Below, one piece after another: positions 5,067-32,241 of a stretch of DNA of 32,532 nt. The notes under the pieces are model-generated. The model was not told where the DNA came from. It ran no database searches and saw only the letters and a list, made by a program, of their open reading frames with translations. The stretch is taken from contig JBDRNT010000154.1 in the NCBI GenBank assembly GCA_043810925.1, forward strand, positions 1 to 32,532, read 5' to 3'. The translations under genes and the position numbers were made by a program. The DNA is from Candidatus Eiseniibacteriota bacterium. Lineage in GTDB: Bacteria > Arandabacterota > Arandabacteria > Arandabacterales > Arandabacteraceae. Positions within the stretch are counted from its first letter, which is position 1; the number at the start of each line of letters is the position of its first letter.

Positions 5067-5710
5067 CAGGGTTCGCTTCCTCGCATTTTCGTGATGTGAC
5101 ACTTCCAGATCCCAAAGTGACGGATTCGCGTAATCTCCGCCACCGGATGCACCTCTCCGAGCCCCGTAATTCTGTAGAGCTTCTGGTAGAGCGGCCACTT
5201 CACGGAGTCCACACAGGCCATGATCTTCTGTCTCCCGTGCCGGTGGTGACAGTCGAGCGCAATCTTTGACGAGGCCGCCCTCAGAATGTTCTTGAGCTTG
5301 TATTCCGGATGGGTAAAAGCATCAAACGCGAAGCACTCGTCATCTTTGACCGGAATGGTTATCTTGAGATACGGATCGAAGAAATCATGGAAGGCCACCC
5401 ACTCGAAGTAGACGAGTTTCTCCCGGTCGAAGACCACGTACACGCGGTGCCCCGCCTTAAGCCACCGCCGCATCTCATCGAGATCTCTTCCACCGGCCAG
5501 TTCCGAAATAGCCTCAAGGTCCCGCTCTTCTCCCGGACGGAATGTGACCGGGACATCGGACGGTAGCCCTTCGGAACCGCTCCCGGCGAACCACTCGGAC
5601 TTTGCGTCATGAGTCGAGGCGGCGAAAACGTAGAGCAGCTGTCTTGTATGGACAAACCGCCTCAGCCTTCTCAGCCAGTATTCGGCAACTGCTCTCATAC
5701 GTCTGGTCAT
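5066..5710 (-). CDS. GNAT-fold acyltransferase-like protein
   Basis: FRPGEERDL and ECFAFDAFTHPEY match the GNAT motif A region, although the Gly loop is missing. Coupled to both neighbours. Confidence 0.6.
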   Translation of the reverse strand: MTRRMRAVAEYWLRRLRRFVHTRQLLYVFAASTHDAKSEWFAGSGSEGLPSDVPVTFRPGEERDLEAISELAGGRDLDEMRRWLKAGHRVYVVFDREKLVYFEWVAFHDFFDPYLKITIPVKDDECFAFDAFTHPEYKLKNILRAASSKIALDCHHRHGRQKIMACVDSVKWPLYQKLYRITGLGEVHPVAEITRIRHFGIWKCHITKMRGSEP

Positions 5711-12223: not shown

Positions 12224-13300
12224 TTAGCCACTCTCCTCATCCGCCGAACAGGCGAGCCGACAGATCTCCGGCAGAGTCGTCTTGAGTTGAGACCTGAGCT
12301 GCCGGATCCGGGGGCCGTTCCAGATCTCCCGGAAGTCGTCCTCAAAGATATTGCCGAGTTTGATCTTGTCGGGATCAAACAGATTACAGCACGGGGTCAC
12401 GCTGCCATCCACGGTGACGTATGTGCCTGTCCACGGCCACGTGCAGATTCTGTTACGCTGCCCCGGGTCACGCCTTGCTCCCGCGAGCTGACGGTTGAGC
12501 AGCGGGCCTACGCCGAGCCGGACGTCGAGGCCCCGGGCGATCTCTCGCGCCCGGTGTATGCTTTCGAGTTCCTCACCTGATACCCGGTCGTCATTAAGCG
12601 TTGCCGTCCAGGGGATCATCCGCTTAAGCTGGAGCACGTTGACCCCCATGGAATGCACAAGCTTGACTATCTCGGGGATCTCCCCGGCGTTACGCTTTGT
12701 TACCGTGGTCACTACGCTTAAAGCCGGTGTGGTTCGTCCGCAGCGGTTGACGAGGGCGGCGAAGTTCCTGATATTCTCAACAACCTCGGCCATCTTTGCG
12801 CCCTTTCTTATGGATTCAAAGACCGCGGGGTCAGCGGCATCGATTGAAAACTTAAGCGTGGCCAGGCCGCTTTCTACAAGATCCTCAGCCAGTTTCCCCT
12901 TGAGCAGCATGGCGTTCGTAAAGAAACTCACCTGGACTTTCCTCTGACTGAGATACCGGATCATGAGAAGCAGTTCCGGATTAAGGAGGGGCTCACCGGT
13001 GCCGTTGAGACACGCCCATCGTACGTGCGGCAAGCGGGACATCACCTTCTTGAATTCATCGAACGACATGTGTCTCGACTGCTGCATCTGTGGACCCATC
13101 TCATCGATCAAGCCCCTGCACGTCTCACAGTGGAGATTGCAGTGTGTGGTGATCTCAATCTGTGCGAAGGATGGCTGATTGGGACATCTGATGGGCATTC
13201 TCTTCTGGGCGTACCTTGTCAGTACGGCATTCCAGAGGGTGCCCAACCCCCGGCTGCGTATCATTGCCGCAGCCCGCTTGACTTTTCGATAGGCGTTCAT
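12224..13300 (-). CDS. Radical SAM protein with SPASM/twitch domain
   Basis: CNLHCETC (CxxxCxxC), GTGEPLL, and C-terminal CTWPW..VDGSVTPCC..LGNI..IWNG..CRLAC. Confidence 0.9.
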   Translation of the reverse strand: MNAYRKVKRAAAMIRSRGLGTLWNAVLTRYAQKRMPIRCPNQPSFAQIEITTHCNLHCETCRGLIDEMGPQMQQSRHMSFDEFKKVMSRLPHVRWACLNGTGEPLLNPELLLMIRYLSQRKVQVSFFTNAMLLKGKLAEDLVESGLATLKFSIDAADPAVFESIRKGAKMAEVVENIRNFAALVNRCGRTTPALSVVTTVTKRNAGEIPEIVKLVHSMGVNVLQLKRMIPWTATLNDDRVSGEELESIHRAREIARGLDVRLGVGPLLNRQLAGARRDPGQRNRICTWPWTGTYVTVDGSVTPCCNLFDPDKIKLGNIFEDDFREIWNGPRIRQLRSQLKTTLPEICRLACSADEESG

Positions 13301-17387: not shown

Positions 17388-18695
17388 CTATTCCCTGGTC
17401 GTACCGCTCCTGTGGATCTCTTCAATCTCTATATTGATCGCGCGCAGCGCCTCGATCAATCGCTCTCTGGGCTCACCTTCGAAATTCACCAAACCGGCCC
17501 GGCTGTTGTTATCCTGCGGGTCGGCGTAGTTGGAAAACGGGAAGTAGTGATAACCCACTATGTAGGGTTCTGCGAAAAGCTCCGGAAGCTGCTCACTTGA
17601 TCCTGCGATGGAGATCTCAGCCCTGGCCGCCCATTCGGCCTCCCCGCCCTTGCCGTGATCCTCATTCGCACTCCATATGTTGAATTCACTGATCAGGATA
17701 GGGCCCTGAAAGAGATTCTGGATCGTCCGCAGACGATAGGTCGGTGTTTCGTCGAAATACGCATTAATCGAAAGAACATCCCAGTACCCTCTGGCTCCAC
17801 GCGCCAGCGCCTCGAAGCCTCCAAGCCGTTCCGGCATTGTGTTTCTCCAGGGGATAGGCGTGAAGAAGATCCTTGGGCCGAGAATCAGATGATTCTTGTC
17901 GTACTCCCGGATCGCGTTCGTGGTTACTTCCGCATAATGCCTGACGGCCTTCTCAACGAAGCCGTCCCTGGCCGATTCCAGGCGGCCCGCGTCCCCGGGC
18001 AGAGTGGGGGAGCCGAACGTCTCGGTCAGAAAATCCTCTGCAGCCTTTCTTCCCGGAGCGTCAGAGGGAAGATCCATGTAGGCGTCAAGAAGTGGAGGGT
18101 TCTCACCTGCCCACTTGAGTTCATTGTCCGTCCACCACCCGATCAGATATGGATCCGATGCGAGGGGCTGGACCTTCTCCTCAGCCTGTTTGAGCACCGA
18201 TTCTTCAAACTTCTCCGAGAACATGTCCGGCCAGTCTTTGCCCCGCGGACCCTTTATCGAGGCATAGGTCTTAAGAAGGTTGAGTAACTCGGCATAAGGA
18301 ATATTCGTCTGCGCTATCCTCTGGTTTCTGCCGGTACTCGACCAGGCCCCCAGGGTGTTGAATCCAAGGCCCTGGAGCCAGGCGATTACCTCCCCTTCAC
18401 TCGTGGCGGGGCACCAGAAGGCGTTCACGCCTTTGCTCAGGAAAGCATTACCCTCGGGCGTAATCAACCACAGGGCTCCATCCACCAGCTCCACCCTGAA
18501 GAAACCTGTGGCATGGCTCCGAACGACCTCCCAGCCTCCGAAGCGGTCATAGAGTTCAGGCTCGGGCAACTCGGTCTTCTCCGGAGGACGCTTCCATGTC
18601 TTGTTCTTGCCTTTCATATTGAGATCACACGTGAGCGACACGAGTACCAGCGATGCAAGACATGTGAAGGTCATGACTCTCACAATGGATTTCAT
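17388..18695 (-). CDS. Exported clan GH-A glycoside hydrolase (agarase/GH50-like)
   Basis: N-terminal hydrophobic signal with Cys, TGFFRVE..WLITPEGNAFLSKGVN, PYLIGWWTDNEL (acid/base) and PILISEF (nucleophile). Confidence 0.75.
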   Translation of the reverse strand: MKSIVRVMTFTCLASLVLVSLTCDLNMKGKNKTWKRPPEKTELPEPELYDRFGGWEVVRSHATGFFRVELVDGALWLITPEGNAFLSKGVNAFWCPATSEGEVIAWLQGLGFNTLGAWSSTGRNQRIAQTNIPYAELLNLLKTYASIKGPRGKDWPDMFSEKFEESVLKQAEEKVQPLASDPYLIGWWTDNELKWAGENPPLLDAYMDLPSDAPGRKAAEDFLTETFGSPTLPGDAGRLESARDGFVEKAVRHYAEVTTNAIREYDKNHLILGPRIFFTPIPWRNTMPERLGGFEALARGARGYWDVLSINAYFDETPTYRLRTIQNLFQGPILISEFNIWSANEDHGKGGEAEWAARAEISIAGSSEQLPELFAEPYIVGYHYFPFSNYADPQDNNSRAGLVNFEGEPRERLIEALRAINIEIEEIHRSGTTRE

Positions 18696-19846
18696 TCAGC
18701 CAACCTTCCTTTCCCGTTCATTGAAGATTCGTAAACCTCCTCGACTTCCCGGGCCGTCCGTGTGCTTGGAAACTTCTGCTCGACGACTATCTTACCCCTT
18801 CGGCCCATGTCGCGGGCAAGTTCGGGGTTCGAGAGGAGTTTATGCAGAGCGGACGCGAGGGCCTCTTCGTCGCCTGATGGAACGAGCAAACCTGTTTCGC
18901 CGTCGCTTACAACTTCGGGAATCCCTCCGACCTTGGTTGCGACAACAGGCTTGCCGAGTGCCATGGCCTCGAGTATGGTCACGCCGAGACCCTCCCAGAG
19001 GGAGGGCAGCACCAGAATGTCCATGCGGGACAGGACGGGGTAGGGGGAATCAAGCCATCCCGTGAAGATCAGTTTATCCTCCAGACCCAGCTCGCGTCCC
19101 ATCTGTTCGAGACGACCTCGCTCCTTGCCGTCTCCAACCAGCAGGAACAAGACATCGGGATGCTGCTTGACGACCGTCCGCGCAGCCAAAAGCATGAGCT
19201 TCTGGTTCTTGATCGGAGTGAATCGACCCAGTGTGCCGATGATTCGATTCTGCCCGAATCCCTCACGGAGGGAGGCGGGGAGTTTCGACGCGCCGGCTGC
19301 GAGCCGAATCCTTTCTACGTCAACGCCGTTATGAACCACGGTGATCTTCTCAATGTCGACACCCTGCTCCGCAAGATCGCGCCGCACTGCATCCGAGTTG
19401 GCTATGAGTGCGTCGCAGGCTCTGAGCGATGCCGATATCGCACGGGTGTAAATCGCCCGTTTGAGAAACGTAGTCTCCTGACTCACGAGCTCCCTCTGGA
19501 TGCTGGCATGCACATGCATTAGGAAGGAGACCCGTTTCATCCACTTTTTGATGAAGTAACCGAATATATGTGCCAGGACACTGTGCGTGTGAATCAAAGC
19601 GACATGTTCTCTCTGAAGCAGCCGGACCACGCGGCACAAAGCGATGGGTGCCGTCAGAGGGCCGGCAGGGAACACATCGGCCCTGTAACCTTTTTGCCTT
19701 GCCATCTCCGCGATGGTTGAATCGTCCAGGGTGAGGAGGATTGGACTTCCTGCCCGGCTCTGTTCTTCGAGCAACGAGAAAACCACTGTGGCTATCCCGC
19801 CCATCTCCCGCCCGCCCAGAATATGTGCAATTGCCGGTCTCATCAT
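18692..19846 (-). CDS. Glycosyltransferase family 4
   Basis: VVHNGVD, LPSLWEGLGVTILEAMALGKPVV and VGGIPEVV. Start ATG 19846 overlaps the upstream stop (ATGA). Confidence 0.9.
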   Translation of the reverse strand: MMRPAIAHILGGREMGGIATVVFSLLEEQSRAGSPILLTLDDSTIAEMARQKGYRADVFPAGPLTAPIALCRVVRLLQREHVALIHTHSVLAHIFGYFIKKWMKRVSFLMHVHASIQRELVSQETTFLKRAIYTRAISASLRACDALIANSDAVRRDLAEQGVDIEKITVVHNGVDVERIRLAAGASKLPASLREGFGQNRIIGTLGRFTPIKNQKLMLLAARTVVKQHPDVLFLLVGDGKERGRLEQMGRELGLEDKLIFTGWLDSPYPVLSRMDILVLPSLWEGLGVTILEAMALGKPVVATKVGGIPEVVSDGETGLLVPSGDEEALASALHKLLSNPELARDMGRRGKIVVEQKFPSTRTAREVEEVYESSMNGKGRLAE

Positions 19847-21435
19847 GTTATATCCAGCCTGGTTTCCGGAACGGCTCCGTTTGCTCTGCCTCTTTCCCGT
19901 CGGAGCATGCTCAGGATCTCGCCTAATTCGGAAATCCTGAGAACCTTGCACGCACCCAGGAACACTGCCGCTCCGATCACGAGGAGCAGGGCCATTCTGA
20001 TAAAACTCCAGACCTGAGAATCGGTGACCGCCAGAACGGATGAGGAGAAGAACCTCAGACCCAGAGCAATCACAACGGATGCGATAAGGACCCGGCCCAG
20101 CGAACCGACGATCTCGCGAACCGCCAGGCGGCCCATCTTTTTCTGAAGCAGCATCCAGAGAATCACGGCGCCTGATGTCATGACGATCGATGTCGACAGC
20201 GCAATGCCACCGTGGCCGAAGACCTGCATCAGCGAGTAGTCAAGAGCTACGTTGACGGCGACGAACACCGCACTTATCTTAAGCGGCGTCATCGTGTCCT
20301 GTATGGAGAAGAACGCAACCTTAAGAATCGGCAGGATCGCGTAGGCGAGAACTCCGAAAGAGTAAAAGAGAAGAGCATACGCGGTGATGCTCGTCGATTC
20401 CATGTCGAAGGCACCGCGCTGAAAGAGAAGCCCGATTATCTCCGTACGGAAGAAAATCACGAAGAGCGTAACGGGAATCGCGGCGAATCCCATGAGCCGG
20501 ATGCTCTTTGAGAGAAGTCTTCTCGCTTCAGGCCCCTCACCGCGATTCCGCTGGTCGGAAAGAACCGGGAGTATCGTCCGGCCGAGAGAACCCATGACCA
20601 TGGAGTTCGGTATTCGTAGAATCTTCTGTGCAAACGTCAGGGCGGATACATAGCCCGCACCCAGGAGCGAAGCAAACCACCTGTCTACGAGCAGGTTCAG
20701 GCCGTTAAGCGAGAAATCCAGGAGACGGGGTCCGAAGAGCCTGCCGATCTGCTTCACTCCGGGATGTCTCAAAGCGACCCGTCGACCGATTCTTATGTCG
20801 TATCTGTGAATGGCGATAAAGAGGATGACAAACTGGATCAGGGTACCAGCGACGTATCTGAGCGGGATGGAGGCGATTCCCAGCGACTTTGCCCCGAGAA
20901 CGAGAAAGGTGATCCCGCCTATCACGGGCAGAACAGCCGTTACCGCCGGTAGCAAGAACCGGTTGAGCGAATGAAAGAGCGTCGCCAGGAATGAGGACAG
21001 AAACCTTAAGAGAATGAGCGGCGTCATGATCATCAAGAGCCGGCCTGCGAGCCTCACAGTGGTGCCCGAAAACCCCGGTGCAAGACCGGTGACGACCAGA
21101 TGGGCCAGACCCAGAATAGCCAGAGCAAGCACTGTCAAGAGCGCTATTGAGGAGAAGAACACTGTGTTGGAGATGATCAGTGCTTCCTCGGTTCCCCTTG
21201 TGGTGCGGTATTCCATGAAGACCGGCAGGAACGTGTAGTTGAGAACACCCTCGGCGATCCCGCCGAAGAGGATCGGGACACTGTGCGCGACTATATAGGC
21301 ATCAGTGGAAGCGCTGATTCCGAAGAAGTAAGCCATGGCCAGGAACTGGAAGAACCCCAGAACAACCACAAGGATTCTCGCGATTAGAAGTACCAGTGTG
21401 CCGCTGACCATGCCCCGTCCGGAGAGGATGTTCAA
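19843..21435 (-). CDS. MurJ/MviN-like MOP-family flippase
   Basis: FGISASTDAY, FLPVF, VDRWFAS, LFQRGAF and QDTMTP motifs; about 14 TM; TTG start with GGAGG RBS. Confidence 0.85.
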   Translation of the reverse strand: MNILSGRGMVSGTLVLLIARILVVVLGFFQFLAMAYFFGISASTDAYIVAHSVPILFGGIAEGVLNYTFLPVFMEYRTTRGTEEALIISNTVFFSSIALLTVLALAILGLAHLVVTGLAPGFSGTTVRLAGRLLMIMTPLILLRFLSSFLATLFHSLNRFLLPAVTAVLPVIGGITFLVLGAKSLGIASIPLRYVAGTLIQFVILFIAIHRYDIRIGRRVALRHPGVKQIGRLFGPRLLDFSLNGLNLLVDRWFASLLGAGYVSALTFAQKILRIPNSMVMGSLGRTILPVLSDQRNRGEGPEARRLLSKSIRLMGFAAIPVTLFVIFFRTEIIGLLFQRGAFDMESTSITAYALLFYSFGVLAYAILPILKVAFFSIQDTMTPLKISAVFVAVNVALDYSLMQVFGHGGIALSTSIVMTSGAVILWMLLQKKMGRLAVREIVGSLGRVLIASVVIALGLRFFSSSVLAVTDSQVWSFIRMALLLVIGAAVFLGACKVLRISELGEILSMLRRERGRANGAVPETRLDIT

Positions 21436-21451
21436 GGTACTAACCTCCCGG

Positions 21452-22114
21452 TCAATCGAGATTCCATTGCCTCATGATCGCCGGAGGGATCGGACAGGTC
21501 ATCTGGCTCATGATCACACCCACGAGTTCTCCATGAGCCTCCTCGACCTTCTTCTTCACAAAAAGGGCGGAGCTCTTACTCGTGTCGAGTCGAACCAGGA
21601 GTATCACCCCATCGACAACGGTCGTTATGAAGAGTGGGAGGGGGTGTGAATAAAGACATGCGGAGTCCACAATAACGAAGTCGAAGTGTGCCTTCGCATT
21701 TTCCATGAATCCGACCGTCTTGGCCCTGTCATACAGCTCAAGACCCGAGGGTTCAGTGACTCCAAGCGAGAGCAAATTCGGTTGGGCCGGCTGGATCCCG
21801 AGGAATTGATCACCGGTGCTCAGAGATTCCCTGTAATCCTGGTCCTGCTCGAGACGCCACTTTTGAAGGTCCTTTGAGTCCGCGATCAAGAGTGTCCTTT
21901 TGCCCTCCTGTGCGAGCGCATAAGCAAGCACTGCGGCGACAGGACTCTTCTTCTGCAGAGGGCTTGCGCCCGTCATCAGGAAGGCCTTCTTCTTGGAGAC
22001 TTCAGACAAGCGCACGAAGTTGACTGCCGTCCGTTTCAAGGAAGCAGAGAACTCCGGGTCGTTGAACAAGTCAGGAACCGTTTTAACTCTGTTGTTGTTA
22101 CCCAGAAATATCAT
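21452..22114 (-). CDS. Wzc C-terminal/CapB-like BY-kinase homolog, apparently degenerate
   Basis: LAYALAQEGKRTLLI, FDFVIVDS and VDGVILLV are present. Walker A reads TGASPLQKKS and there is no C-terminal Tyr cluster. Confidence 0.7.
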   Translation of the reverse strand: MIFLGNNNRVKTVPDLFNDPEFSASLKRTAVNFVRLSEVSKKKAFLMTGASPLQKKSPVAAVLAYALAQEGKRTLLIADSKDLQKWRLEQDQDYRESLSTGDQFLGIQPAQPNLLSLGVTEPSGLELYDRAKTVGFMENAKAHFDFVIVDSACLYSHPLPLFITTVVDGVILLVRLDTSKSSALFVKKKVEEAHGELVGVIMSQMTCPIPPAIMRQWNLD

Positions 22115-23670
22115 TATACACCGTCCGCGGGAGGGATCTCCCCGATAACGGGGACACCCAGCACTTGTTCGATCTCCTGCCTTCTTCGGAAGCTATCATT
22201 CCAGTATTCGACGAACAGCGCATAGCCGATTCCTATGACTGCGCCAAAGAACAGGCTGACCACGAAATGGATCATTGACTTGGGCCAGTCGGGGTTCCGG
22301 AGAGGAGAGACATGGGCTCTTTCTATGACTCTAAGCTTATTATCATCAGTGCTCATATTGGACAGGACATTGAGCTCCTCCAGCCTGGCTCTCAGGCCTC
22401 GATCCATGACCTCATAGACCGCAACCTGGTTGCTGAGTGAGGCGAGCTCCATCTCTACTGCGGGAAGTTCCTGAAGTGCGCTCTCGCTCTCTCTGATCGT
22501 TCCGGCCAGGGCCGCCAGCCTGTCATCCGCCGTGGTGACATCGGTCTCAAGTTCGATCGAGCGATTCAAAAGCCGGTTATACGCGGACTCGGAGGATCTT
22601 GCACCACCCCTGGCAATTCTCTGGTTCTCCTCGCTCAGGAGTCTCTTGAGTCTTTCAATCTCGGCTTCCAACCGGATGACATCAGGGTGCTTTCTTGTCT
22701 TCTCTGTCAGGGCCGACGCAAGCGAGATTTCCGCCCTGCTGAGCTCGGACTGCATCTGCTGGATCGCGGGGTTATCCGAGGCCAACGGTGATGACGCTAC
22801 CGAGGGATCCCGCTTCTCAAGCTGGTTCTGGGTCTCCTCAAGCAACGCGCTCTGGATCTCCTTACCGCTCTTGGCCTGGAGATACTGGAGCCGCAAGTCC
22901 TCAATCTTCTGGATCTTCTGTTTCTTTTCCTCCTGAAGATCGCCCACCACGTTCTCTTCGAGGAACTGTCTTAACGCTACCCGGGCCTGCAGGAGCTTCT
23001 CTTCGGTCGACTCAAGCTCCTGACGAGTGCATTCATATGCAATCTGAGACTCCGACCGGGACAACTCGAGGGTCTTCTCCTGTAACAGATCCGCCATCCT
23101 GTTGGCGATATCCGTTGCGAGCTGAGGCGTCTGGCCTCGAATGGTCAGGTTGATCACCTGGGTCTGCACCTCGACCTCGATGTCCTCAGCCTTGTCGATC
23201 AGATCGTCAGCGGCCTCGTCAACCCAGTCGCGCTCCGGTGCCCTCAGAACCCTCATCGCCTGGAGTATCAGGAAGGGGCTTCTGAAGACGTCAATCAGAC
23301 CCTTCTTGAGGATGTCGCGCGGCTTATTCGGCTCTGTCTTTCGTTGTTGGAGCCGCTTGTCGAGTTCGAATTCACTCACAATCTGGTAAGCCATGTTTCG
23401 TCCGGTCAGAAGGGCCGCAAGGTTGTGGGCCTGAACCTCGGGAGAAGTGGGCGGACCGGGGGTGGAGAGCTCGGGAACACTTGTCAGCTGTCTCTTGGGA
23501 TTGGCCTCCACGAGGATGAGAGTCGTTGCCTCCCACCTCGGTGTTATCAAGTAGGTGAAGAACATCACGAAGAAAACGGTGGCCGCAAACAGCCAGATGA
23601 TGGCGCGTCTTCTTCTGAAAACGGCGTAGAAGAGATTGAAGAGCGTATCTTCTTTGGTAGACTCAGTCAA
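22114..23670 (-). CDS. Polysaccharide co-polymerase (Wzz/GumC, Wzc N-terminal part)
   Basis: Two TM helices flanking a long coiled coil; TPRWEATTLI, KHPDV and EQVLGVPVIGEIP. Confidence 0.9.
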   Translation of the reverse strand: MTESTKEDTLFNLFYAVFRRRRAIIWLFAATVFFVMFFTYLITPRWEATTLILVEANPKRQLTSVPELSTPGPPTSPEVQAHNLAALLTGRNMAYQIVSEFELDKRLQQRKTEPNKPRDILKKGLIDVFRSPFLILQAMRVLRAPERDWVDEAADDLIDKAEDIEVEVQTQVINLTIRGQTPQLATDIANRMADLLQEKTLELSRSESQIAYECTRQELESTEEKLLQARVALRQFLEENVVGDLQEEKKQKIQKIEDLRLQYLQAKSGKEIQSALLEETQNQLEKRDPSVASSPLASDNPAIQQMQSELSRAEISLASALTEKTRKHPDVIRLEAEIERLKRLLSEENQRIARGGARSSESAYNRLLNRSIELETDVTTADDRLAALAGTIRESESALQELPAVEMELASLSNQVAVYEVMDRGLRARLEELNVLSNMSTDDNKLRVIERAHVSPLRNPDWPKSMIHFVVSLFFGAVIGIGYALFVEYWNDSFRRRQEIEQVLGVPVIGEIPPADGV

Positions 23671-23685: not shown

Positions 23686-24930
23686 TTAGGCAAATCCTCT
23701 GAGCAGGACAACCGCATTAGCCCCGCCGAACCCGAATGAATTCGACATGGCGACACGGATCTGACCTTGCCTGCCACGATTTGGAACGAAGTCAAGATCG
23801 CATTCCGGATCCGGGATCTCGTAATTGATGGTAGGCGGCAGAAACTGGTTCTTGACCGCCATGACGGTTGTTATGATTTCCACGGCCCCGGCGGCTCCGA
23901 GGAGGTGCCCGATCATCGACTTGGTCGAGCTGACCGGGATCGATTTCGCGCGTTTGCCGAAGACGTTCTTGATTGCCTCGGTCTCCCCCTTGTCATTTGC
24001 CTGAGTAGCCGTGCCGTGTGCGTTTATATAGTCCACCTCGTCGACGGAGACGCCTCCGTCGGCAAGAGCTCCTTCGATCGCGTCGGTCTCACCCTTAACA
24101 TCGGGAAAAGTCAGATGATAAGCATCCGAATTCGCATAGTACCCGGCAATCTCCGCATAGACCGGTGCAGACCGGGCAGCCGCCGTATCCAGGCTCTCCA
24201 GAATCATCGCCCCTGATCCTTCACCCAACACCGGCCCGTCCCTGTCTTTGCTGAAAGGCCGTACCGATCTCTCGGGGTCATCGTTTCTGGTGGAAAGCAC
24301 CCGGAGTTTACACCACCCACAGAGCATGCCGGGGGTGATGCAGGCCTCCGACGCCCCTGCGATAGCGGCATCCACATAGCCGTGTTTTATGAGGCGATAG
24401 GCTTCCCCCACGGCTATGGCGCCGGAGGAGCAAGTGTTACTGATAGTGTAATTGATGCCGGTCGCTCCCGTCTCGATCGCGATGTTGGTGGACGCAGCCG
24501 CGCCCATTGCCCTGGGAAGGGTCATTGCGTCAATTGCCTTGCAGCCTTTTGAGAAGAAGACCTCATACTGCTCTTCACTTGTCGTGACTCCGGCCTCACT
24601 CGATCCCCAGATCACCGCGACGCGCTTCCTGCCGGTCTCATCAAGCGGGAGTTTGCTCTCATTTACGGCTTCTGAGGCAGCAACCAGTGCGAACTGGCTG
24701 AAACGGTCCGTTGCATAGATCTTCTGAGGCGTGAGGTGCGCAGCGGGGTCGAAGTCCTTCACCTGAGCCGCGATCCTGGTCCTGTAGGGAGAGGCGTCGA
24801 AGCTGTCGATCGCACTCACACAGGACTTGCCGTGAGAGATTGAATCCCAGAAGGCCTCTTTGCCGATGCCTGCCGGAGCCACCACTCCCATACCTGTTAT
24901 GACTACACGTCTTTTCAGATCACTATTCAT
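23686..24930 (-). CDS. fabF: Beta-ketoacyl-ACP synthase II-like ketosynthase 2
   Basis: RRVVITGMG, SNTCSSG (Cys), NAHGTAT (His), GHLLGAAG (His) and SNSFGFGG. Likely start is ATG 24930. Confidence 0.9.
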   Translation of the reverse strand: MNSDLKRRVVITGMGVVAPAGIGKEAFWDSISHGKSCVSAIDSFDASPYRTRIAAQVKDFDPAAHLTPQKIYATDRFSQFALVAASEAVNESKLPLDETGRKRVAVIWGSSEAGVTTSEEQYEVFFSKGCKAIDAMTLPRAMGAAASTNIAIETGATGINYTISNTCSSGAIAVGEAYRLIKHGYVDAAIAGASEACITPGMLCGWCKLRVLSTRNDDPERSVRPFSKDRDGPVLGEGSGAMILESLDTAAARSAPVYAEIAGYYANSDAYHLTFPDVKGETDAIEGALADGGVSVDEVDYINAHGTATQANDKGETEAIKNVFGKRAKSIPVSSTKSMIGHLLGAAGAVEIITTVMAVKNQFLPPTINYEIPDPECDLDFVPNRGRQGQIRVAMSNSFGFGGANAVVLLRGFA

Positions 24931-26176
24931 CGTCCCGCCATTTTCTTGCAATCAGAATAGCATTTGTACCGCCAAAACCGAAGGAGTTAGACATCGCTAT
25001 ATCGACCGCGGCTTCACGCCCGATGTTGGGCACATAGTCGAGATCGCACTCGGGATCGGCAACCTCGTAATTGATGGTAGGCGGTATGAAGCTCCGCTCC
25101 ATGGCCAGGAGACATGTTATCAACTCTATCGCGCCGGATGCTCCAAGAGGATGCCCGACCATTGACTTGGTCGAACTGATCGGGATCGAGTAGGCCTTGT
25201 TTCCAAAAACCTGCTTGATTGCCGCCGTCTCCACCTTGTCGTTGGCCAGAGTCGCCGTACCATGGGCGTTTATGTAATCGATCTCGCCCGGATCGATCCC
25301 CGCATCCGTCAGAGCTCCCCGCATGGCCTCGACTTCCGTGTCCAGATTGGGGTAGGTGAGATGGAACGCATCGCTGCTTGAACCGTAGCCGATGATCTCG
25401 CCCAGGATCCTCGCGGATCGGCCGAGGGCATGTTCAAGACTTTCGAGAATCACTATGCCCGCCCCTTCCCCCATAACGAGACCGTCCCGGTTCTTGCTGA
25501 ACGGCTTGATCGCCTTCTTGGGGTCGTCATTCTTGGTTGACATCGCCCGCAGCTTGTCCCAGGCGCAGAAATGGACAACCGAGATCGGCGCTTCCGCCCC
25601 ACCGGTGACCATCAAGTCCGCATAGCCGTTCTTTATCTTCTGATAGGACTCGCCGATCGCATGTGTCCCGGCAGCACAGGCCGTGGACAGGCAATAGCTT
25701 ATGCCCTTGAATCCGAACTGCATGCAGATATAGCTCGAACCGGCGTTGGGCATCACGAGCGCAACCGACAGGGGATTGAGATGCCGGTAACCTCTGACAT
25801 AGAACCCTTCCGCCGCCTCTTCGTGGGAGATGATTCCTCCGCCACCGGAACCGAGGAGTACACCGGTCTTGGCCTTGATATCGTCATCGACGTCAAGACC
25901 GCTGTCTTCAATCGCCATCGCAGTAGCCCCAATGGCCATCTGTGTAAAACGGTCCATCCGCTGGGATACCCGTGGTTCGATGAAGTCGTCGGGGTTAAAA
26001 TCTTCAACCGTGGCTGCGATCCTGGTACGGAAGGATTCGGTGTCGAACCGGGTGAGTTTTCTAACACCCGACACTCCCTTTGAAGCTGCCTGCCAGTAGG
26101 TTTCCTTACCTGAACCGATAGGCGTTATCAGCCCCATACCGGTTACGACTACCCTTCTTTGGGCCCCGTTCTTCAT
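24923..26176 (-). CDS. fabF: Beta-ketoacyl-ACP synthase II-like ketosynthase 1
   Basis: RRVVVTGMG, STACAAG (Cys), NAHGTAT, GHPLGASG and SNSFGFGG. Likely start is ATG 26176. Confidence 0.9.
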   Translation of the reverse strand: MKNGAQRRVVVTGMGLITPIGSGKETYWQAASKGVSGVRKLTRFDTESFRTRIAATVEDFNPDDFIEPRVSQRMDRFTQMAIGATAMAIEDSGLDVDDDIKAKTGVLLGSGGGGIISHEEAAEGFYVRGYRHLNPLSVALVMPNAGSSYICMQFGFKGISYCLSTACAAGTHAIGESYQKIKNGYADLMVTGGAEAPISVVHFCAWDKLRAMSTKNDDPKKAIKPFSKNRDGLVMGEGAGIVILESLEHALGRSARILGEIIGYGSSSDAFHLTYPNLDTEVEAMRGALTDAGIDPGEIDYINAHGTATLANDKVETAAIKQVFGNKAYSIPISSTKSMVGHPLGASGAIELITCLLAMERSFIPPTINYEVADPECDLDYVPNIGREAAVDIAMSNSFGFGGTNAILIARKWRDDE

Positions 26177-26192
26177 AGATCCAAGATTTCCT

Positions 26193-26438
26193 CTATTTCG
26201 TGTGTTTTCGGACCACCTCAACTGCTGTAACAAAGGAAGTGATCTTGAGCGCCTCTTCGTCGGGAATGTCGATCTCGAACTCCTGTTCGAGAGCGGCCAG
26301 GATTCCGAGGGCAGCCAGCGAGTCCCCGCCCAGGTCGGCGATCGTCGAGGTCCTCTTCACGGCGGCATCGTCGACCTGTAACACCCGCATGATCACATTC
26401 TTGACTTTCGCTTCAATCTCATCGAATTTCTCTTCCAT
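26193..26438 (-). CDS. acpP: Acyl carrier protein
   Basis: DLGGDSL phosphopantetheine site, LEQEFEIDIPDEEA; AGGAG RBS before ATG 26438. Confidence 0.9.
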   Translation of the reverse strand: MEEKFDEIEAKVKNVIMRVLQVDDAAVKRTSTIADLGGDSLAALGILAALEQEFEIDIPDEEALKITSFVTAVEVVRKHTK

Positions 26439-26465
26439 CAATTCTCCTTCTGGTGTTCTTTCCAC

Positions 26466-27206
26466 TCAGTAGAGCCCACCATCGACTCTGATTACCTGTC
26501 CCGTGATATAACTCGATTTATCTGAAGCCAGGAACACAACCAGTTGAGCCACCTCTTCCGCCGAACCGAGACGTCCCAGCGGGATAAGTTCCCGGTAGCG
26601 GGAGAGCACCTGTTCGGGCATCCCCTTCAGCATGTCGGTGTCGATGTAACCGGGTGCCACGGCGTTGACCGTGATCCCGAATGGGGCAAGCTCTCTCGAG
26701 AGCGACTTCGTGAATCCTATCACACCGGCTTTCGCTGCAGTGTAGTTGGTCTGCCCCGGGACGCCTACCATGGCACTCAGAGACGCCAGATTGACTATCC
26801 TACCCTTACCTCTTCGAACCATGGAAAACGCGATCAGCTTGGTGACGTTGAAAATACCAATCAAGTTTGTCTGGATCACATCGGTCCAGTCCTCAGGTTC
26901 CATGTTGATGAAGAACTTGTCATGGAGGATCCCGGCATTATTGACGAGAATGTCGACGGGGCCCAGCTCGTTCTTGACGGCGGCGGCCATCTTCTGGGCC
27001 GCCTCATAGTCCCCGACCGAGCATTTGATTCGCATTGCCTTTCGCCCCAGCTTGACGATCTCGCTCTCGATCTCGGCTGCCGCCTGCTCGCTGGCATTAT
27101 AGTTCACAGCCACGTCGGCGCCGTTCCTGGCCAGGAGCAACGCAATGTCACGGCCGATTCCTCTCGACGCTCCTGTCACAAGTGCAACTCTACCTGCCAG
27201 ATCCAT
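26466..27206 (-). CDS. fabG: 3-oxoacyl-ACP reductase
   Basis: TGASRGIG, NNAG, GQTNYTAAK, NAVAPG and YITGQVIRVDGG. Confidence 0.92.
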   Translation of the reverse strand: MDLAGRVALVTGASRGIGRDIALLLARNGADVAVNYNASEQAAAEIESEIVKLGRKAMRIKCSVGDYEAAQKMAAAVKNELGPVDILVNNAGILHDKFFINMEPEDWTDVIQTNLIGIFNVTKLIAFSMVRRGKGRIVNLASLSAMVGVPGQTNYTAAKAGVIGFTKSLSRELAPFGITVNAVAPGYIDTDMLKGMPEQVLSRYRELIPLGRLGSAEEVAQLVVFLASDKSSYITGQVIRVDGGLY

Positions 27207-27219: not shown

Positions 27220-27990
27220 CTACTTCGGTATGATCACAGTCACACCGGGCTGTTCCTCTCCCTTCATGACATCTTCCACCGCCGGCTCGAGTATGATACC
27301 GCGCTCGAGGGTTACAATGGGGTTGAGCATTGTCTGAAGATGGTTGAAGAACAGATCCACATTGGCCACGAAACTTGACGGGACATAAATGATGTCCCCT
27401 CGGACGAGCTCCGGGTTCTGGGATATGTCGCCCTTGTCCATGAGACGATCCACATTGTAGACCTCGCGCCGACCCTGATCGAGTCCGTCCCTGATCAGAA
27501 ACACCTTGTTCGAGTTAGCCTCGTCGGTAAAGCCACCCGCCTTGGCAATGGCTCCGATCAAGGTGGCCAATTCTCCTCCCATGTTATACAGGCCGGGTTT
27601 CTGCACTTCCCCGAGGACGTAAACCTTCCGGCTGCGATAAGCGGTGATCGTCACCCTGACGTGGGGGGCTACGAGATACTCGGAGAGGGCCTCGACGATC
27701 TCCTCTCTGAGTTCCATGGGTGTGAGATCGTAGGCATGGACCGGGCCCACAATCGGTATGAAGATATCTCCCTGCCCCTCGATTGTATATGTCCCGTCGA
27801 ATTCAGGATTCCGCCATACTGTGATCTCTATCTGGTCACCCACCCCAAGGGTCAGGCTTGAGATTGCCACCTCTTTCTCCCGATACCCCTCCGCGGGTCT
27901 TGACCCGGTAACCTCCCCCGGTGGGGGAGCGGAGCTACAGCCCAGGATCAGGGAGAGGATCGCGAAAAAGAGTAGATCGTTCCGTCTCAT
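27220..27990 (-). CDS. wza: Polysaccharide export outer-membrane lipoprotein (Wza/OPX)
   Basis: Lipobox ILGC, LGVGDQIEITVW (Poly_export), VYVLGEVQKPG (SLBB) and GDIIYVP; GGAGG RBS before ATG 27990. Confidence 0.9.
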   Translation of the reverse strand: MRRNDLLFFAILSLILGCSSAPPPGEVTGSRPAEGYREKEVAISSLTLGVGDQIEITVWRNPEFDGTYTIEGQGDIFIPIVGPVHAYDLTPMELREEIVEALSEYLVAPHVRVTITAYRSRKVYVLGEVQKPGLYNMGGELATLIGAIAKAGGFTDEANSNKVFLIRDGLDQGRREVYNVDRLMDKGDISQNPELVRGDIIYVPSSFVANVDLFFNHLQTMLNPIVTLERGIILEPAVEDVMKGEEQPGVTVIIPK

Positions 27991-28045
27991 GCTACTGCCT
28001 CCGATCATGGATATCCCCCCTCATCTGTTAAATCGGGCAATTCGG

Positions 28046-29470
28046 TTACATCCCTTGAGCTTTAAGCACTGCCGGAATAGTCCTCAAGAGGATCTTTATG
28101 TCGTTGGAGAGTTTCCAGTTATCGATATATTCCATGTCCATCCTTATCCAGTCCTCAAACGAGATCCCATTTCTCCCATTCACCTGCCATGTGCAGGTGA
28201 TTCCGGGAAGAATACTGAAACGTCTGCGCTGCCAATCCTGATTGAAACCATTGTAGTCGCGTAGCGGCAGCGGTCTCGGCCCCACAAGGCTCATGTCGCC
28301 TTTGAGAACGTTAAAGAGCTGGGGTAGCTCATCGATGCTCCACCTGCGCAGCCACCTGCCGACACTTATGATTCTGGGATCGTTTCGTATCTTAAAGACC
28401 GGGCCGTCCATTTCGTTGCGGTCTTCGAGATCCAGCTGCAACTGCTCGGCATCCTCTACCATGGTCCTGAACTTATGGAGATAGAAGACCCGCCTGTTGC
28501 GTCCCATGCGTTTCTGGTTGAAAAGCACCGGGCCCGGCGATGAGAACTTGATGGCAAGGACCGCGATCAGCATCAGAGGGGCCGTCATGACCACAATCAG
28601 AAAAGCCAGCGCCCTGTCGATCACCTGTTTCGCCAGATAGGACCAGCCGTCCCGGGGTCCGGAGGTGATCATCACGGTGGGAAGGTGCTCGAACTCCTCT
28701 GAGTGGGACTCGGCGAAGCTGGTGTCGAAAAACCGCCACAGGAACCGGATCGGGATGCCGTTCTCTTCAGCCTTTTGGACGATTCTATTGATCTCCTCAT
28801 AATGCGACTTGATCGGCAAAGCGATGAACACCTCATCCACTATCCGCTCCTGTATTATCCGGGGAAAGTCATCCAGTCTTCCGAGGAACTCCACGTTATC
28901 CCGGGGAACGTGAATCTTGTTGTCGATGAAGCCGATCAAGCGAAACCCGAGCTCCTTCTTCTCCTCAATCATGTCCGCAAACTCATAGGCTCTCTGGTTG
29001 GTCCCCGCGATCAGGATCAGCCGCAGGTTCCTGCCGTGAAGCCGGATTTTCCTGAGGATGTGCCTCAGGGCGGCGCGAAACGAGAGCGTCAAGACACTAC
29101 TCGAAAGCCAGAAAGGAAAAACGAAATAGGGTCCGAAGACCCTGAACCGGAAAGCAAGGCCCGCAAGCAGCATGAACAGACTCCCGACTGTTGTGGCCTT
29201 GAGAATATCCAGCCATTCACGACCGGCACCCCCGAGTCTTCGCGAGCGGTATAGATGAAACCGGTGAAAGACCAGATACCATGCGAGTGCCATGACCAGG
29301 AAAAGTGCGAGATTGATCACCTTGATACGCATGGCCAGGAACTCGGTCATGGGGATCCCTGCGCCATAGATGGCATTGAAAGAGGAGGCAGCAAGAAGAG
29401 ATACAATGAGAATCGTTATATCAGACAGCTTATAAAGATTCAGAAGGAGCTTTCGGCGAAATGAAATCAT
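28046..29470 (-). CDS. Priming polyprenyl-phosphate hexose-1-phosphate transferase (WcaJ-like)
   Basis: Four N-terminal TM helices, a Rossmann-like middle domain, KFRTM, SIDELPQLFNVLKGDMSLVGPRP and PGITCTWQV. Confidence 0.93.
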   Translation of the reverse strand: MISFRRKLLLNLYKLSDITILIVSLLAASSFNAIYGAGIPMTEFLAMRIKVINLALFLVMALAWYLVFHRFHLYRSRRLGGAGREWLDILKATTVGSLFMLLAGLAFRFRVFGPYFVFPFWLSSSVLTLSFRAALRHILRKIRLHGRNLRLILIAGTNQRAYEFADMIEEKKELGFRLIGFIDNKIHVPRDNVEFLGRLDDFPRIIQERIVDEVFIALPIKSHYEEINRIVQKAEENGIPIRFLWRFFDTSFAESHSEEFEHLPTVMITSGPRDGWSYLAKQVIDRALAFLIVVMTAPLMLIAVLAIKFSSPGPVLFNQKRMGRNRRVFYLHKFRTMVEDAEQLQLDLEDRNEMDGPVFKIRNDPRIISVGRWLRRWSIDELPQLFNVLKGDMSLVGPRPLPLRDYNGFNQDWQRRRFSILPGITCTWQVNGRNGISFEDWIRMDMEYIDNWKLSNDIKILLRTIPAVLKAQGM

Positions 29471-29658: not shown

Positions 29659-32241
29659 TCATTTGGTACGTACAAGTTTGTGGGTAAGGGCAGAGTCGCC
29701 GGCACGCAGCCTGCAGAAGTAGACTCCTGGCGGCAGTGTATGCCCTTCGGGGTCCATGCCGTCCCAGCCGGCGGCGTATCTGCCTGCCGGATGGGAGCCC
29801 TCTAAGATCGTCCTGACGTGGCGACCTATAACGTCATAGATCTTGAGGTCGATGGGTAACCTGCCGGCACCCCCGGTTATGTCGAAGCTGATCACACACT
29901 CTGCCTGGGACGGGTTTGGTGCGACCTCTAGAAAGAGGCGTCCCCTCACGGAGATGTTGCCGTTGCGGGGCACAAGCGCATAGCACCCCACATCGCACGC
30001 GCCGATCAAACCGCATGTCGGTTGCTGGGAAGGGCTGCAGGGAGATCCCTCAAGCAAATGGTGGTCTTCGCTCTCGAGGTCACAGAAGAGCGGATCGGAC
30101 GAGAAGTTCCCGTCGATACCCTCTTGATTCGCGATACACCCGATCCAGTCCCCGCCCGTATTGCCATAGATGTCACAGCAACTCAGAGTGGGGGAGCCTC
30201 CGGCCGGGCAGCTCAGAGCCGCGCCGCCGGTATTAAAGGCCATCGTCGTCTTCTCCAGGGTGCCCGTGTTGCATTCATAGGCGATTGCCCCTCCGGTGGT
30301 AGCGGAGTTGCCGGTAAACGTACAGCCCGAGACAGTCAGCGTGCAGACCCCGGCCGCCGCCATGCCACCGCCCGCCTGAGCGGAGTTCGCAAGGAACTCG
30401 CTGTCGATGATCGTAGCGGAGCCTGTTGTATACCAGTGGCAGAGTCCGCCGCCTGCAAGCGTGGCTGAGTTACCTGTAAAGGTGCAGGCGGACACAACGA
30501 TTGAGCCGTGCAGTGTGCTTAAGACCGCACCTCCCTCCCTCGCGGAGTTGGTCTCAAAGGTACAGCCGACAAGCGTTGCGTTGGCTGTCCGGGAGTAGAT
30601 GGCGCCGCCCGATGCAGCGGTGTTGCCTGAAAACGTGCAGTTGATGAGCGTCAGTGCGGAGTAGAAGCTGTAAAGACCGCCACCTTTGGATTGGGACGGG
30701 CCGATGTCCCCGCCAGCGGAGTTATCGGAGAAGATACAATCGGTGAACGTCGGTGCGGAGAAGTCCTCGCACACAACGCCGCCACCGCGGGTCTCACAGT
30801 GGTTATCCGTGATCGCGCAATTCTCGAATGAGGGAAACGATGCACTGCAGTAGACCGCTCCCCCGAGAGAATCATGGGAGCCGCCCGTCAGCGTAAGCCC
30901 CCTGATCACGGTCGTACTGTCCACGTTGTTGCAGAGGATGACGACACCGAGCGAATCGGCATCTATGCTCGCACACGCCGCATCTGCGGTCTCACTGGTA
31001 AGCATGATACCAGACTTAATAGTGACAAAGTGTTCGTGGTAGACTCCACAGGCCACGGTCACGGTATCACCCGATGCGGCCGAATCGACTCCCGCCTGAA
31101 TCGTCGGTGCATCTCCCAACCCATCGGCGGTGATATGCCAGTTCCGGGGTGCGTCCAGACGTACACCGCTGTCGGTGTTGGACGGTGGGCCCGCTCCGGT
31201 GGCGTTGTATGCAGCAACATAGTAGGTGTGGCTTATGCCGGGTTCGACGCCCGTGTCATCCCAGAAACGCTGGTCGATGTCACTGCCCGTGAACACCGGC
31301 GAACCATCCCGGAAGACTCTAAAGCCTATACCGCAAATGCCGGTCCAATCCCAGGACACCCTTACGGCACTGTGAAGGTCGTCGGAGGCTATGAGGTTCG
31401 ATGGGGCGGTCAGGGGCGGAGAGAGGGACAGGTCGGCTCCGGCTATAACGATCTCGATTTCCTCCCCGTCGTTGGGAGGAGTTCCGTTCATGAGCCAGAG
31501 GTCGATGTGGACCCTGAGTGAGTCGGTCTCGACCGGGATATCACCGTTTTCGCCTCGGGTGAATGTACGTTCATGTATCAGCGAATCCGGATCGGGTGGT
31601 TCCTCATAGTGCCCGTTGATGCTCGTAAATGTCACGTAGTCCTGCTGCCAGTCGATGGAGTGAGTGGAGGATGTTCCGTTGAGGTGCATGGTGAACGGCT
31701 CATAGCTGCTCGAGGGAAGGCACTTATTAGGGAAGGTTACGGGGTGGATAACATATTGCGCGTTCCTGCATGCCCCCGGGTCCTTCCAGCGCGAGAATTC
31801 AATGTCGATTTCAGTGGAGTCACCTGCATAGAGGAATGGAGATGCGACCGCATTGATATCAAGACTGTCCAGGTCTCCAACCATGTAGAATCTGAACATC
31901 CCCTGTGTCGCAGGTGCCCGCGAGACCACCTCCGCGCAGTACCAGGTGCTGTCGATCTGACGTATCTTAAGATGCAGCCGGCCGCTCTCATCCACCCATA
32001 CGCTCTCATCGGTATCAGACCACAGGTTGGGCCCCGGTCCCCAGTATCCACTCTTCACTCCCCAGCGATAGCCCGCAAACGTTATCGCCCGGGCATCAAG
32101 ACTGGGTGCAAGTGCAAGCATGAGGCACAGGGCTATCCCCAAATGCAACAGCGCTACGTTGCATCTTGCGCAAATCTCAGGGAAACTGAGAAGGCGTGTT
32201 TCAGTACCGGGTACCGGAGGATTGCATTGTTTCTCGGTCAT
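29659..32241 (-). CDS. Secreted modular protein: GH16-like domain, FN3, parallel beta-helix, FlgD-Ig/T9SS-like C-terminal domain
   Basis: Signal ending DARA; EIDIEF motif; FN3 (APSNLIAS..YYVAAYN..GPPSN); TIQAGVD and repeated FxxN..GGA; tail APNP..IYDVIGRHVR..WDG..GVYFCRL. Confidence 0.85.
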   Translation of the reverse strand: MTEKQCNPPVPGTETRLLSFPEICARCNVALLHLGIALCLMLALAPSLDARAITFAGYRWGVKSGYWGPGPNLWSDTDESVWVDESGRLHLKIRQIDSTWYCAEVVSRAPATQGMFRFYMVGDLDSLDINAVASPFLYAGDSTEIDIEFSRWKDPGACRNAQYVIHPVTFPNKCLPSSSYEPFTMHLNGTSSTHSIDWQQDYVTFTSINGHYEEPPDPDSLIHERTFTRGENGDIPVETDSLRVHIDLWLMNGTPPNDGEEIEIVIAGADLSLSPPLTAPSNLIASDDLHSAVRVSWDWTGICGIGFRVFRDGSPVFTGSDIDQRFWDDTGVEPGISHTYYVAAYNATGAGPPSNTDSGVRLDAPRNWHITADGLGDAPTIQAGVDSAASGDTVTVACGVYHEHFVTIKSGIMLTSETADAACASIDADSLGVVILCNNVDSTTVIRGLTLTGGSHDSLGGAVYCSASFPSFENCAITDNHCETRGGGVVCEDFSAPTFTDCIFSDNSAGGDIGPSQSKGGGLYSFYSALTLINCTFSGNTAASGGAIYSRTANATLVGCTFETNSAREGGAVLSTLHGSIVVSACTFTGNSATLAGGGLCHWYTTGSATIIDSEFLANSAQAGGGMAAAGVCTLTVSGCTFTGNSATTGGAIAYECNTGTLEKTTMAFNTGGAALSCPAGGSPTLSCCDIYGNTGGDWIGCIANQEGIDGNFSSDPLFCDLESEDHHLLEGSPCSPSQQPTCGLIGACDVGCYALVPRNGNISVRGRLFLEVAPNPSQAECVISFDITGGAGRLPIDLKIYDVIGRHVRTILEGSHPAGRYAAGWDGMDPEGHTLPPGVYFCRLRAGDSALTHKLVRTK

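Follow-up and report, generated by a model that had tools for sequence, protein, structure and literature searches.

Why should a small set of fatty-acid-type genes stand between two export genes of a polysaccharide operon? The question is raised by a stretch of 32,532 nucleotides (nt) from Candidatus Eiseniibacteriota bacterium (GenBank assembly GCA_043810925.1, contig JBDRNT010000154.1). This stretch, hereafter the window, is an entire contig (C154, 32.5 kb) of a genome assembled into 185 contigs, 3.85 Mb in size and 91.7% complete. Nearly all of it is filled by one minus-strand polysaccharide operon, in which a FabG-type reductase, an acyl carrier protein (ACP) and two FabF-derived ketosynthases (KS; here KS1 and KS2) are encoded side by side. 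The original prediction, made from the sequence alone, described this cassette as lying between wza and wzc, and proposed either that its product is a 3-hydroxy or polyhydroxy acyl chain or that the missing dehydratase and enoyl reductase steps are borrowed from primary fatty-acid synthesis (FAS). From the analysis described here, we put at about even the chances that the cassette supplies the polysaccharide with a short acyl donor of the beta-hydroxy or dihydroxy type.

The genes of the window were assigned from a listing of open reading frames (ORFs) and from Pfam and NCBIfam searches of 26 ORFs of at least 150 amino acids (aa), plus the ACP; family matches within the window refer to these searches. 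The four cassette genes are given below.

26466-27206, minus strand: FabG-type 3-oxoacyl-ACP reductase (TIGR01830, 307.7 bits against a cut-off of 297.75).
26193-26438, minus strand: ACP of 81 aa with a GDSL attachment motif (PP-binding, 47.7 bits; start set by the ribosome site).
24923-26176 after start correction, minus strand: KS1, FabF-derived, Cys-His-His, back gate Gly/Trp (fabF model, 532.1 bits against 493.75).
23686-24930, minus strand: KS2, FabF-derived, Cys-His-His, back gate Glu/Trp (fabF model, 498.6 bits against 493.75).

Both ketosynthases are of about 415 aa and contain the ketoacyl-synt N- and C-terminal domains. The spacing of the cassette is tight throughout: 13 nt separate the wza stop from the fabG ATG, 27 nt the fabG stop from the ACP ATG (with a ribosome site, GAAGGAGA, in front of this ATG, to which the ACP start was moved) and 16 nt the ACP stop from the KS1 ATG. 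KS1 and KS2 share 8 nt (ATGAATAG), and 15 nt, with GAGGGAG, lie between the KS2 stop and the TTG start of the gene for the polysaccharide co-polymerase (PCP). The predicted position and the two flanking gaps of 13 and 15 nt were correct, and the gene names need qualification: the 'wza' encodes a short, lipoprotein-type outer-membrane polysaccharide export (OPX) protein of 262 aa, and the 'wzc' a PCP without a kinase domain, next to which stands a separate, weakly BY-kinase-like protein. Promoter- and terminator-like sites found by a consensus scan showed no excess over shuffled sequence. Because of the tight spacing and the 8-nt overlap, it is reasonable to infer, as had been claimed, that the cassette is co-transcribed with the operon. 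The searches also bore out the reported gaps in the gene set, since no ORF of the window matched FabZ/FabA, FabI, FabD, FabH or PlsX. Comparison with the same-genus sister species (G001) gave ratios of nonsynonymous to synonymous substitution (dN/dS) of 0.117 for FabG, 0.093 for the ACP, 0.102 for KS1 and 0.103 for KS2, with 0.08-0.16 for other operon genes; the cassette is under purifying selection.

Is this the only fatty-acid gene set of the organism? The original prediction had proposed a search for a separate housekeeping fab locus, and would have been refuted by the absence of any other fabF/acpP from the genome; tblastn of the four cassette proteins against the genome found such a locus, a canonical plsX-fabH-fabD-fabG-acpP-fabF-rnc cluster on another contig (C69). 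The cassette is thus a dedicated second set, and it lies not in the plsX-fabH-fabD cluster but between the OPX and PCP genes. Its proteins are 48% (FabG), 38% (ACP), 46% (KS1) and 43% (KS2) identical to their housekeeping counterparts, and KS1 shares 49% identity with KS2. Genome-wide six-frame searches with family models revealed a single FabD, on C69, and a single phosphopantetheinyl transferase (PPTase), of the ACPS type. The sole FabA/FabZ-type match was found within a 461-aa frame on contig C104 that is probably an LpxC-FabZ fusion, and there were three PP-binding matches, namely acpP, the ACP of the cassette and, weakly, one more on C118. FabI was not found in the genome, in which adh_short_C2 matched at E<=1e-30 solely the three FabG-like genes; the only enoyl-reductase candidate found was a partial FabK/NMO-like match in two frames (C52, 33629-34263), and the FabV profile matched neither this genome nor the control genomes and is thus uninformative. 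The cassette supplies its own reductase and condensing enzymes. With one FabD and one PPTase in the genome, however, it needs housekeeping enzymes for malonate loading and activation, so that borrowing from primary FAS is partly unavoidable.

What might the two condensing enzymes make? KS1 and KS2 were aligned to Escherichia coli K-12 FabF as reference, using 14 KS1, 16 core KS2, 9 outer KS2 and 77 ordinary FabF rows. Both ketosynthases, and all members of their clades, keep C163, H303, H340, K335, T305, D265, T270 and the GFGG loop with F400. In the KS-chain-length factor pair of type II polyketide synthases (PKS), the chain-length factor has Gln in place of the active-site Cys; here, Cys is present in 14/14 KS1, 16/16 core KS2 and 9/9 outer KS2. 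The changes lie elsewhere. Position F202 is Trp in every KS1 (14/14), core KS2 (16/16) and outer KS2 (9/9) row, and position I108 is Glu in all 16 core KS2 and Gln in all nine outer KS2 rows. At the latter position KS1 has Gly in the window and Val in 71% of its rows, and ordinary FabFs have Ile (84%) at 108 and Phe (94%) at 202. In the cassette proteins themselves, the altered gate residues include Glu119 and Trp213 of KS2 and Trp206 of KS1. Further pocket-side changes are G198 to Met in KS2 and F229 to Leu or Pro. In FabF, I108 and F202 form a back gate at C7-C8 of the bound acyl chain, FabB carries Gly at position 108, and the I108F change confines FabF to C6-to-C8 elongation (PMC9006962; this and the other articles cited by PMC number are drawn on in excerpt). 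We infer from these residues that the rebuilt back gate may select short or polar/hydroxylated chains.

The interface between the carrier protein and the ketosynthases also appears to be altered. KS2 lacks K65, R68, K69 and K128, basic residues by which FabF contacts AcpP, and retains R206. The cassette ACP lacks D38, E41 and E48 of E. coli AcpP in helix II, acidic residues used by housekeeping partners, and keeps the IPDEEA stretch with D56, the partner of the retained R206. It also falls under the acpP cut-off (TIGR00517, 56.7 bits against 70.45), which the housekeeping copy passes at 102.9 bits. As judged from these substitutions, the ACP-KS pairing would be private.

These residues bear directly on an alternative that we regard as unlikely, in which KS1 and KS2 extend primary-FAS chains on the private ACP, with FabZ and an enoyl reductase borrowed, to give a lipid anchor or a long N- or O-acyl group of the emulsan or Vi-anchor type. 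FabD and the PPTase are borrowed in any case, the genome has a FabZ, and the order ACP-KS-KS resembles mycobacterial acpM-kasA-kasB. Dedicated ACP and ketosynthase sets that borrow their other steps are described for NodE/NodF/NodG (PMC9048898) and the acpXL cluster (PMC5613085). However, a long chain would have to pass the Trp, and in KS2 also the Glu, that stand at C7-C8, on an ACP whose helix II has lost three acidic residues. It would further have to rely on the FabZ of the probable C104 fusion and, with no FabI found, on the partial FabK/NMO-like match, and no LpxXL-, PlsC- or VexE-like acyltransferase matched in the window. The likeness to the mycobacterial enzymes is not borne out by the KasA/KasB model NF005916, for which KS1 scored 276 and KS2 261.7 bits against a cut-off of 560.

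A second alternative is plain redundancy, in which a spare fabG-acpP-fabF(-fabF) set boosts the ordinary fatty-acid or 3-hydroxyacyl supply during polysaccharide synthesis. Both ketosynthases and FabG do exceed the NCBI fabF and fabG equivalog cut-offs, and the closest solved structures to the cassette ketosynthases are ordinary FabFs. We nevertheless find this reading highly improbable, as the gate residues are altered in every KS1 and KS2 member, the ACP falls below the acpP cut-offs, the cassette occurs in only 2/18 genomes of the phylum, and the ketosynthases are placed apart from ordinary FabFs by phylogeny. A maximum-likelihood tree was built from 90 rows (27 KS2, 15 KS1, 5 intermediates, 42 ordinary FabFs and the genome's own FabF) as a quick LG+G4 analysis with midpoint root, in which ordinary FabFs were sampled as every fourth or fifth listed match and fragments of less than 380 aa were excluded. 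KS1 and KS2 each fell on one side of a branch (SH-aLRT 99 each), and together they stood apart from the ordinary FabFs (SH-aLRT 93). They appear, from this tree, to be ancient sister paralogues separate from ordinary FabF. Beside KS1 stood a sister group (P0142-P0144; one member labelled Candidatus Brocadia), and KS2 had an outer subclade (P0018-P0026) with Gln at the gate, which suggests a wider family of FabF-derived pairs.

Further investigation of the distribution showed that KS2 at E<=1e-140 occurs in two of the 18 genomes of the phylum, the source genome (G000) and G001, and the PCP equally in two of 18. In G001 the operon is wholly collinear, with 80-94% aa identity. In a collection of 5.8 billion proteins, 22 cluster representatives of 56-90% identity were listed for KS2, the next matches falling to the level of ordinary FabFs (<=53%), and 13 representatives of 60-89% for KS1. 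Nine KS1/KS2 pairs had equal longest-contig sizes (40,952, 5,746, 49,417, 17,092, 11,700, 38,865, 4,247, 8,143 and 9,183 bp), which is indirect evidence that KS1 and KS2 travel together. Few relatives carried source labels, among them a Nitrospirae and a Deltaproteobacteria metagenome-assembled genome (MAG). At the same threshold of E<=1e-140, KS2 was present in none of 401 sampled genomes from the phylum of a Nitrospirota MAG, despite one KS2 fragment labelled Nitrospirae. A profile scan of genome contigs with the full KS2 alignment, which carries generic FabF motifs, yielded no orthologue (the top locus, out of 80, reached 51% identity), and a metagenome scan with a KS2-specific sub-alignment returned one contig, L094, as the sole orthologue among the best 80 loci. 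L094 encodes a cut KS1 (75% identity) and KS2 (68%), followed by a Wzx-type flippase, an AlkP-family protein (44%), a GNAT, a PCP (34%), a P-loop protein and a GT4-type glycosyltransferase. The PCP type itself is rare: 12 proteins were found at E<=1e-10, the window's own counted. One relative, 63% identical, lies on a 40,952-bp contig, the same size as the contig with KS1 (78%) and KS2 (77%). The cassette is part of a rare, horizontally spread polysaccharide system.

This linkage has to be set against a third possibility, that the product is a small lipid or polyketide-like compound in its own right, such as a signal, a surfactant or a membrane lipid, with no bond to the polysaccharide, the cassette genes merely riding in the operon. 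In keeping with it, no recognised sugar acyltransferase was found in the window, and for at least four further contigs bearing the KS pair no size-matched PCP relative was seen. We consider a free product rather improbable, since the cassette is inserted at distances of 13 and 15 nt from the export genes on either side, with terminator signals not above chance, the same rare PCP type accompanies it in G001 and L094 and on the 40,952-bp contig, and PCP and cassette are equally narrow within the phylum.

How, then, would the cassette work? We propose a private and for the most part insulated acyl-building module of the operon. In it, the sole PPTase would phosphopantetheinylate the dedicated ACP and the sole FabD would load malonate, both being borrowed. 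One FabF-derived ketosynthase would form acetoacetyl-ACP, with either decarboxylated malonyl-ACP or a short acyl thioester as primer, and the private FabG would reduce it to 3-hydroxybutyryl-ACP. The other ketosynthase could add a second C2 unit, to be reduced again by FabG. If neither a dehydratase nor an enoyl reductase acts, this would leave a short acyl-ACP of about C4-C8, either beta-hydroxy or 3,5-dihydroxy. The acyl group would then be passed to the repeat unit by a GNAT-fold enzyme encoded in the operon, the likely acceptor being an amine freed by a cytoplasmic deacetylase, before polymerisation and export through the MurJ-like flippase, Wzy, PCP and OPX. Between the two outcomes offered by the original prediction, the evidence (the gate, ACP helix II and the precedent discussed below) leans to the hydroxy chain. 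A more specific version of this proposal is possible and is put forward tentatively. In it, KS1 and KS2 would be a FabF-derived pair, possibly a heterodimer, with a polar pocket closed by Trp and Glu, acting with the private ACP and a single ketoreductase as a minimal, reduction-only type II synthase that performs exactly two condensations and yields a 3,5-dihydroxyhexanoyl-type polyol chain; a GNAT would transfer this chain to a de-N-acetylated lipid-linked sugar, following Nod-factor logic, and the module would have moved by gene transfer among unrelated phyla.

Three genes near the end of the operon are candidates for the last steps.

5707-6849, minus strand: FemAB/CelD-like GNAT (Acetyltransf_6), candidate acyl or aminoacyl transferase (PF13480, 105 bits; no NCBIfam match).
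5066-5710, minus strand: small GNAT-fold protein of 214 aa, candidate carrier-protein-dependent acyltransferase (no Pfam match).
3460-4284, minus strand: polysaccharide deacetylase without signal peptide (PF01522, 93.7 bits).

In the ESM Atlas, the small GNAT had a feature score of 0.97 and a TM-score of 0.71-0.77 to GNAT clusters, and its neighbours there include fusions of GNAT with PP-binding and of GNAT with Acetyltransf_6. The two GNAT ORFs of the window overlap by 4 nt, and one Atlas neighbour is a 593-aa cluster with Acetyltransf_6, which suggests that the two GNATs are fused in other bacteria. The deacetylase has no signal peptide and no hydrophobic N-terminus and would thus be cytoplasmic and NodB/HfsH-like. 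These genes provide a lead to a pathway in which de-N-acetylation would be followed by N-acylation from the ACP.

Several points weigh against a polysaccharide-bound short hydroxyacyl product. The source bacterium is uncultured and the acyl product is deduced from its genes. No PglD/LpxA-type hexapeptide, NodA, MBOAT or Acyltransf_3 match was present in the window, the GNAT assignment comes from the Atlas look-alike search, and the GNAT of L094 has no sequence similarity to either GNAT of the window. The argument from the gate carries E. coli mutant data over to paralogues of about 45% identity by sequence comparison. Enzymes of the FabF type as a rule extend acyl-ACP that FabH has produced, which makes the priming step puzzling. 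Since FabD and AcpS are borrowed, the module is not fully insulated and could likewise use FabZ and an enoyl reductase. Finally, no PCP relative matched in size the KS-pair contigs of 49,417, 38,865, 17,092 and 11,700 bp in a word-based search, which relies on shared 5-residue words and may let divergent relatives escape; linkage to the PCP is therefore shown for part of the KS clade only.

The cassette is embedded among genes for export and assembly of the polysaccharide; these genes and the upstream site are as follows.

29581-29552: promoter-like site upstream of the operon's first gene (consensus match).
28046-29470, minus strand: polyprenyl-phosphate glycosylphosphotransferase (PGT), first gene of the operon (Bac_transf and CoA_binding_3; TIGR03025, 399 bits against a cut-off of 295.55).
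27220-28008, minus strand: short Wza-like OPX lipoprotein of 262 aa (Poly_export and SLBB; under the cut-offs of every named OPX model).
22114-23670, minus strand: Wzz-domain PCP with two transmembrane segments and without kinase domain.
21452-22114, minus strand: 220-aa P-loop-like protein, weakly BY-kinase-like (TIGR01007, 45.5 bits against a cut-off of 108).
19843-21435, minus strand: MurJ-family flippase paralogue (TIGR01695, about 283.5-283.7 bits, above the MurJ model cut-off).

The operon begins with the PGT, followed by the OPX lipoprotein, FabG, ACP, KS1, KS2, the Wzz-domain PCP, the P-loop-like protein and the MurJ-family flippase. Glycosyltransferases and a Wzy_C polymerase, three AlkP-superfamily proteins and a radical SAM/SPASM protein with a methyltransferase make up the later part, and the Acetyltransf_6 GNAT, the small GNAT-fold protein, a GT2-type glycosyltransferase and the polysaccharide deacetylase the end. 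The OPX sequence contains a lipobox-like LILGC, and no outer-membrane barrel partner for it was seen in the window. The 220-aa P-loop-like protein had no Pfam match at E 0.01; inspected by eye, its Walker A motif is degenerate and the C-terminal tyrosine cluster is absent. The operon's MurJ paralogue is the probable repeat-unit flippase, the housekeeping MurJ being encoded elsewhere (C172, 3438-4961, 434.6 bits). Thus, the operon recruits paralogues of housekeeping envelope genes: MurJ, FabG, ACP and, twice, FabF.

The three AlkP-superfamily paralogues (PF01663; 14232-15908, 8528-10174 and 6864-8531, minus strand) are of about 550 aa and have neither signal peptide nor transmembrane segment. 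A 44% identical relative of the second one stands directly after KS-KS-Wzx in L094 (3461-5161), and this family may be a further conserved partner of the KS pair; transfer of a phospho-substituent is one possible role. A radical SAM/SPASM protein (12224-13300, minus strand) and a class I methyltransferase (11346-12218, minus strand) lie in mid-operon and are conserved in G001. The idea that the former is a formylglycine maturase of the three AlkP proteins was dropped, because no Cys/Ser-x-Pro-x-Arg motif was seen in them by eye. A 435-aa ORF (17388-18695, minus strand; 82% identity in G001) belongs to no Pfam family; it has a lipoprotein-type signal, motifs resembling those of glycoside hydrolases by eye (WWTDNE, ISEFN) and a faint Cellulase match in Pfam (E 0.16). 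On account of this signal and these motifs it was rejected as an acyltransferase, and it is probably the operon's polymer-trimming hydrolase. Upstream, the operon is adjoined by a gene for a secreted 860-aa beta-helix protein with a FlgD_ig-like C-terminal domain (29659-32241, minus strand; 81% in G001), which could be a surface or polymer-modifying protein. At the other end, a Pro/Ala/Ser-rich 213-aa ORF (2590-3231, minus strand) has no family match, overlaps the end of a plus-strand PMT_2+TPR gene (345-2786) and is probably not a gene.

Acyl decorations set the charge, hydrophobicity and antigenicity of surface polysaccharides and their resistance to phages and enzymes, and the genes for non-acetyl decorations are mostly predicted. 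With its four genes, the cassette is a compact route based on FabF and could be reassembled in vitro. The way in which elongating ketosynthases count carbons finds a natural test case in its Glu/Trp gate, and this would be useful for the engineering of short hydroxy acids. Because genes of this kind pass curated cut-offs, their annotation as plain "fabF/fabG/acpP" hides glycan-tailoring modules.

Which known systems does the cassette resemble? The F. psychrophilum (Flavobacterium) O-polysaccharide R1-group comprises wfpC and wfpE (ketosynthases), wfpD (ACP), wfpF (reductase) and wfpG (PglD-like), assignments that were predicted from gene content, and its Qui2NAc4N bears a 3,5-dihydroxyhexanoyl group (Cisar et al., 2019; PMC6519341). 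Like the cassette, wfpC-F combines a pair of ketosynthases with an ACP of its own and a FabG-like reductase, without dehydratase or enoyl reductase, within a Wzx/Wzy-type polysaccharide locus, and the substituent is the one expected from two condensations and two reductions. However, WfpC and WfpE are FabH-type KAS III enzymes (333 and 350 aa), whereas the cassette ketosynthases are FabF-type KAS II with Cys-His-His and about 415 aa. In the wfp system UDP-Qui2NAc4N is the substrate of a transferase of the PglD-like hexapeptide type, in place of which the window has a deacetylase and GNAT-fold proteins; neither a PglD-like hexapeptide nor PglE/PglF-type amino-sugar genes matched among its 26 ORFs. 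The cassette works like the wfpC-F module but is not a homologous member of it.

The Nod system (PMC9048898, PMC9386255) likewise uses a dedicated ACP, a FabF-like ketosynthase and a FabG paralogue for glycan acylation and borrows other FAS functions, and a PF01522-type cytoplasmic deacetylase frees the amine for N-acylation, as proposed here. It differs in having one ketosynthase and a long polyunsaturated product, and its acceptor is a chitooligosaccharide, whereas here the lipid-linked repeat unit of a polymer of the Wzy type would take that role. The cassette FabG reached 220 bits with the NodG model NF009547 against a cut-off of 436, and no NodA-like protein was found in the window. The rhizobial acpXL-fabZXL-fabF1XL-fabF2XL-lpxXL cluster, which the original prediction had cited as encoding an ACP and tandem FabF paralogues with a FabZ, agrees with that description in the excerpted source and shares with the cassette a dedicated ACP and tandem FabF paralogues serving an envelope glycolipid (PMC5613085). 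It has, however, its own FabZ and lipid A acyltransferase (LpxXL) and makes C26-C30 chains (PMC5613085); the cassette contig has no FabA/FabZ match and no LpxXL, its gate argues against long chains, and it lies in a polysaccharide export operon. In logic, wfpC-F and NodF/E/G are closer to the cassette than acpXL, and wfpC-F is the closest precedent.

Other systems are more distant. The type I PKS RkpA/WcbR, together with RkpF, also place FAS/PKS enzymes and a special ACP in capsule clusters, in Sinorhizobium, Burkholderia and Nitrosomonas (PMC3908369, PMC9386255). RkpA/WcbR are multidomain enzymes, whereas the type II proteins of the cassette are separate polypeptides and are encoded in a Wzx/Wzy-PCP-OPX operon. 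The KasA/KasB model was not reached, and with the AcpM model the cassette ACP gave 26.7 bits against 146. The housekeeping FabG-AcpP-FabF set has the same folds and catalytic residues, and its fabF and fabG cut-offs are passed by the cassette, which is set apart by its separate clade, altered I108/F202 gate, divergent ACP and patchy distribution. A literature search on fab, ACP and KS genes in wza/wzc, capsule and O-antigen clusters found no FabF-type FabG-ACP-KS-KS set between wza and wzc. The carrier-protein-built short hydroxyacyl decoration of a glycan is already known, and the FabF-derived tandem pair with its Glu/Trp gate is an unstudied variant of it.

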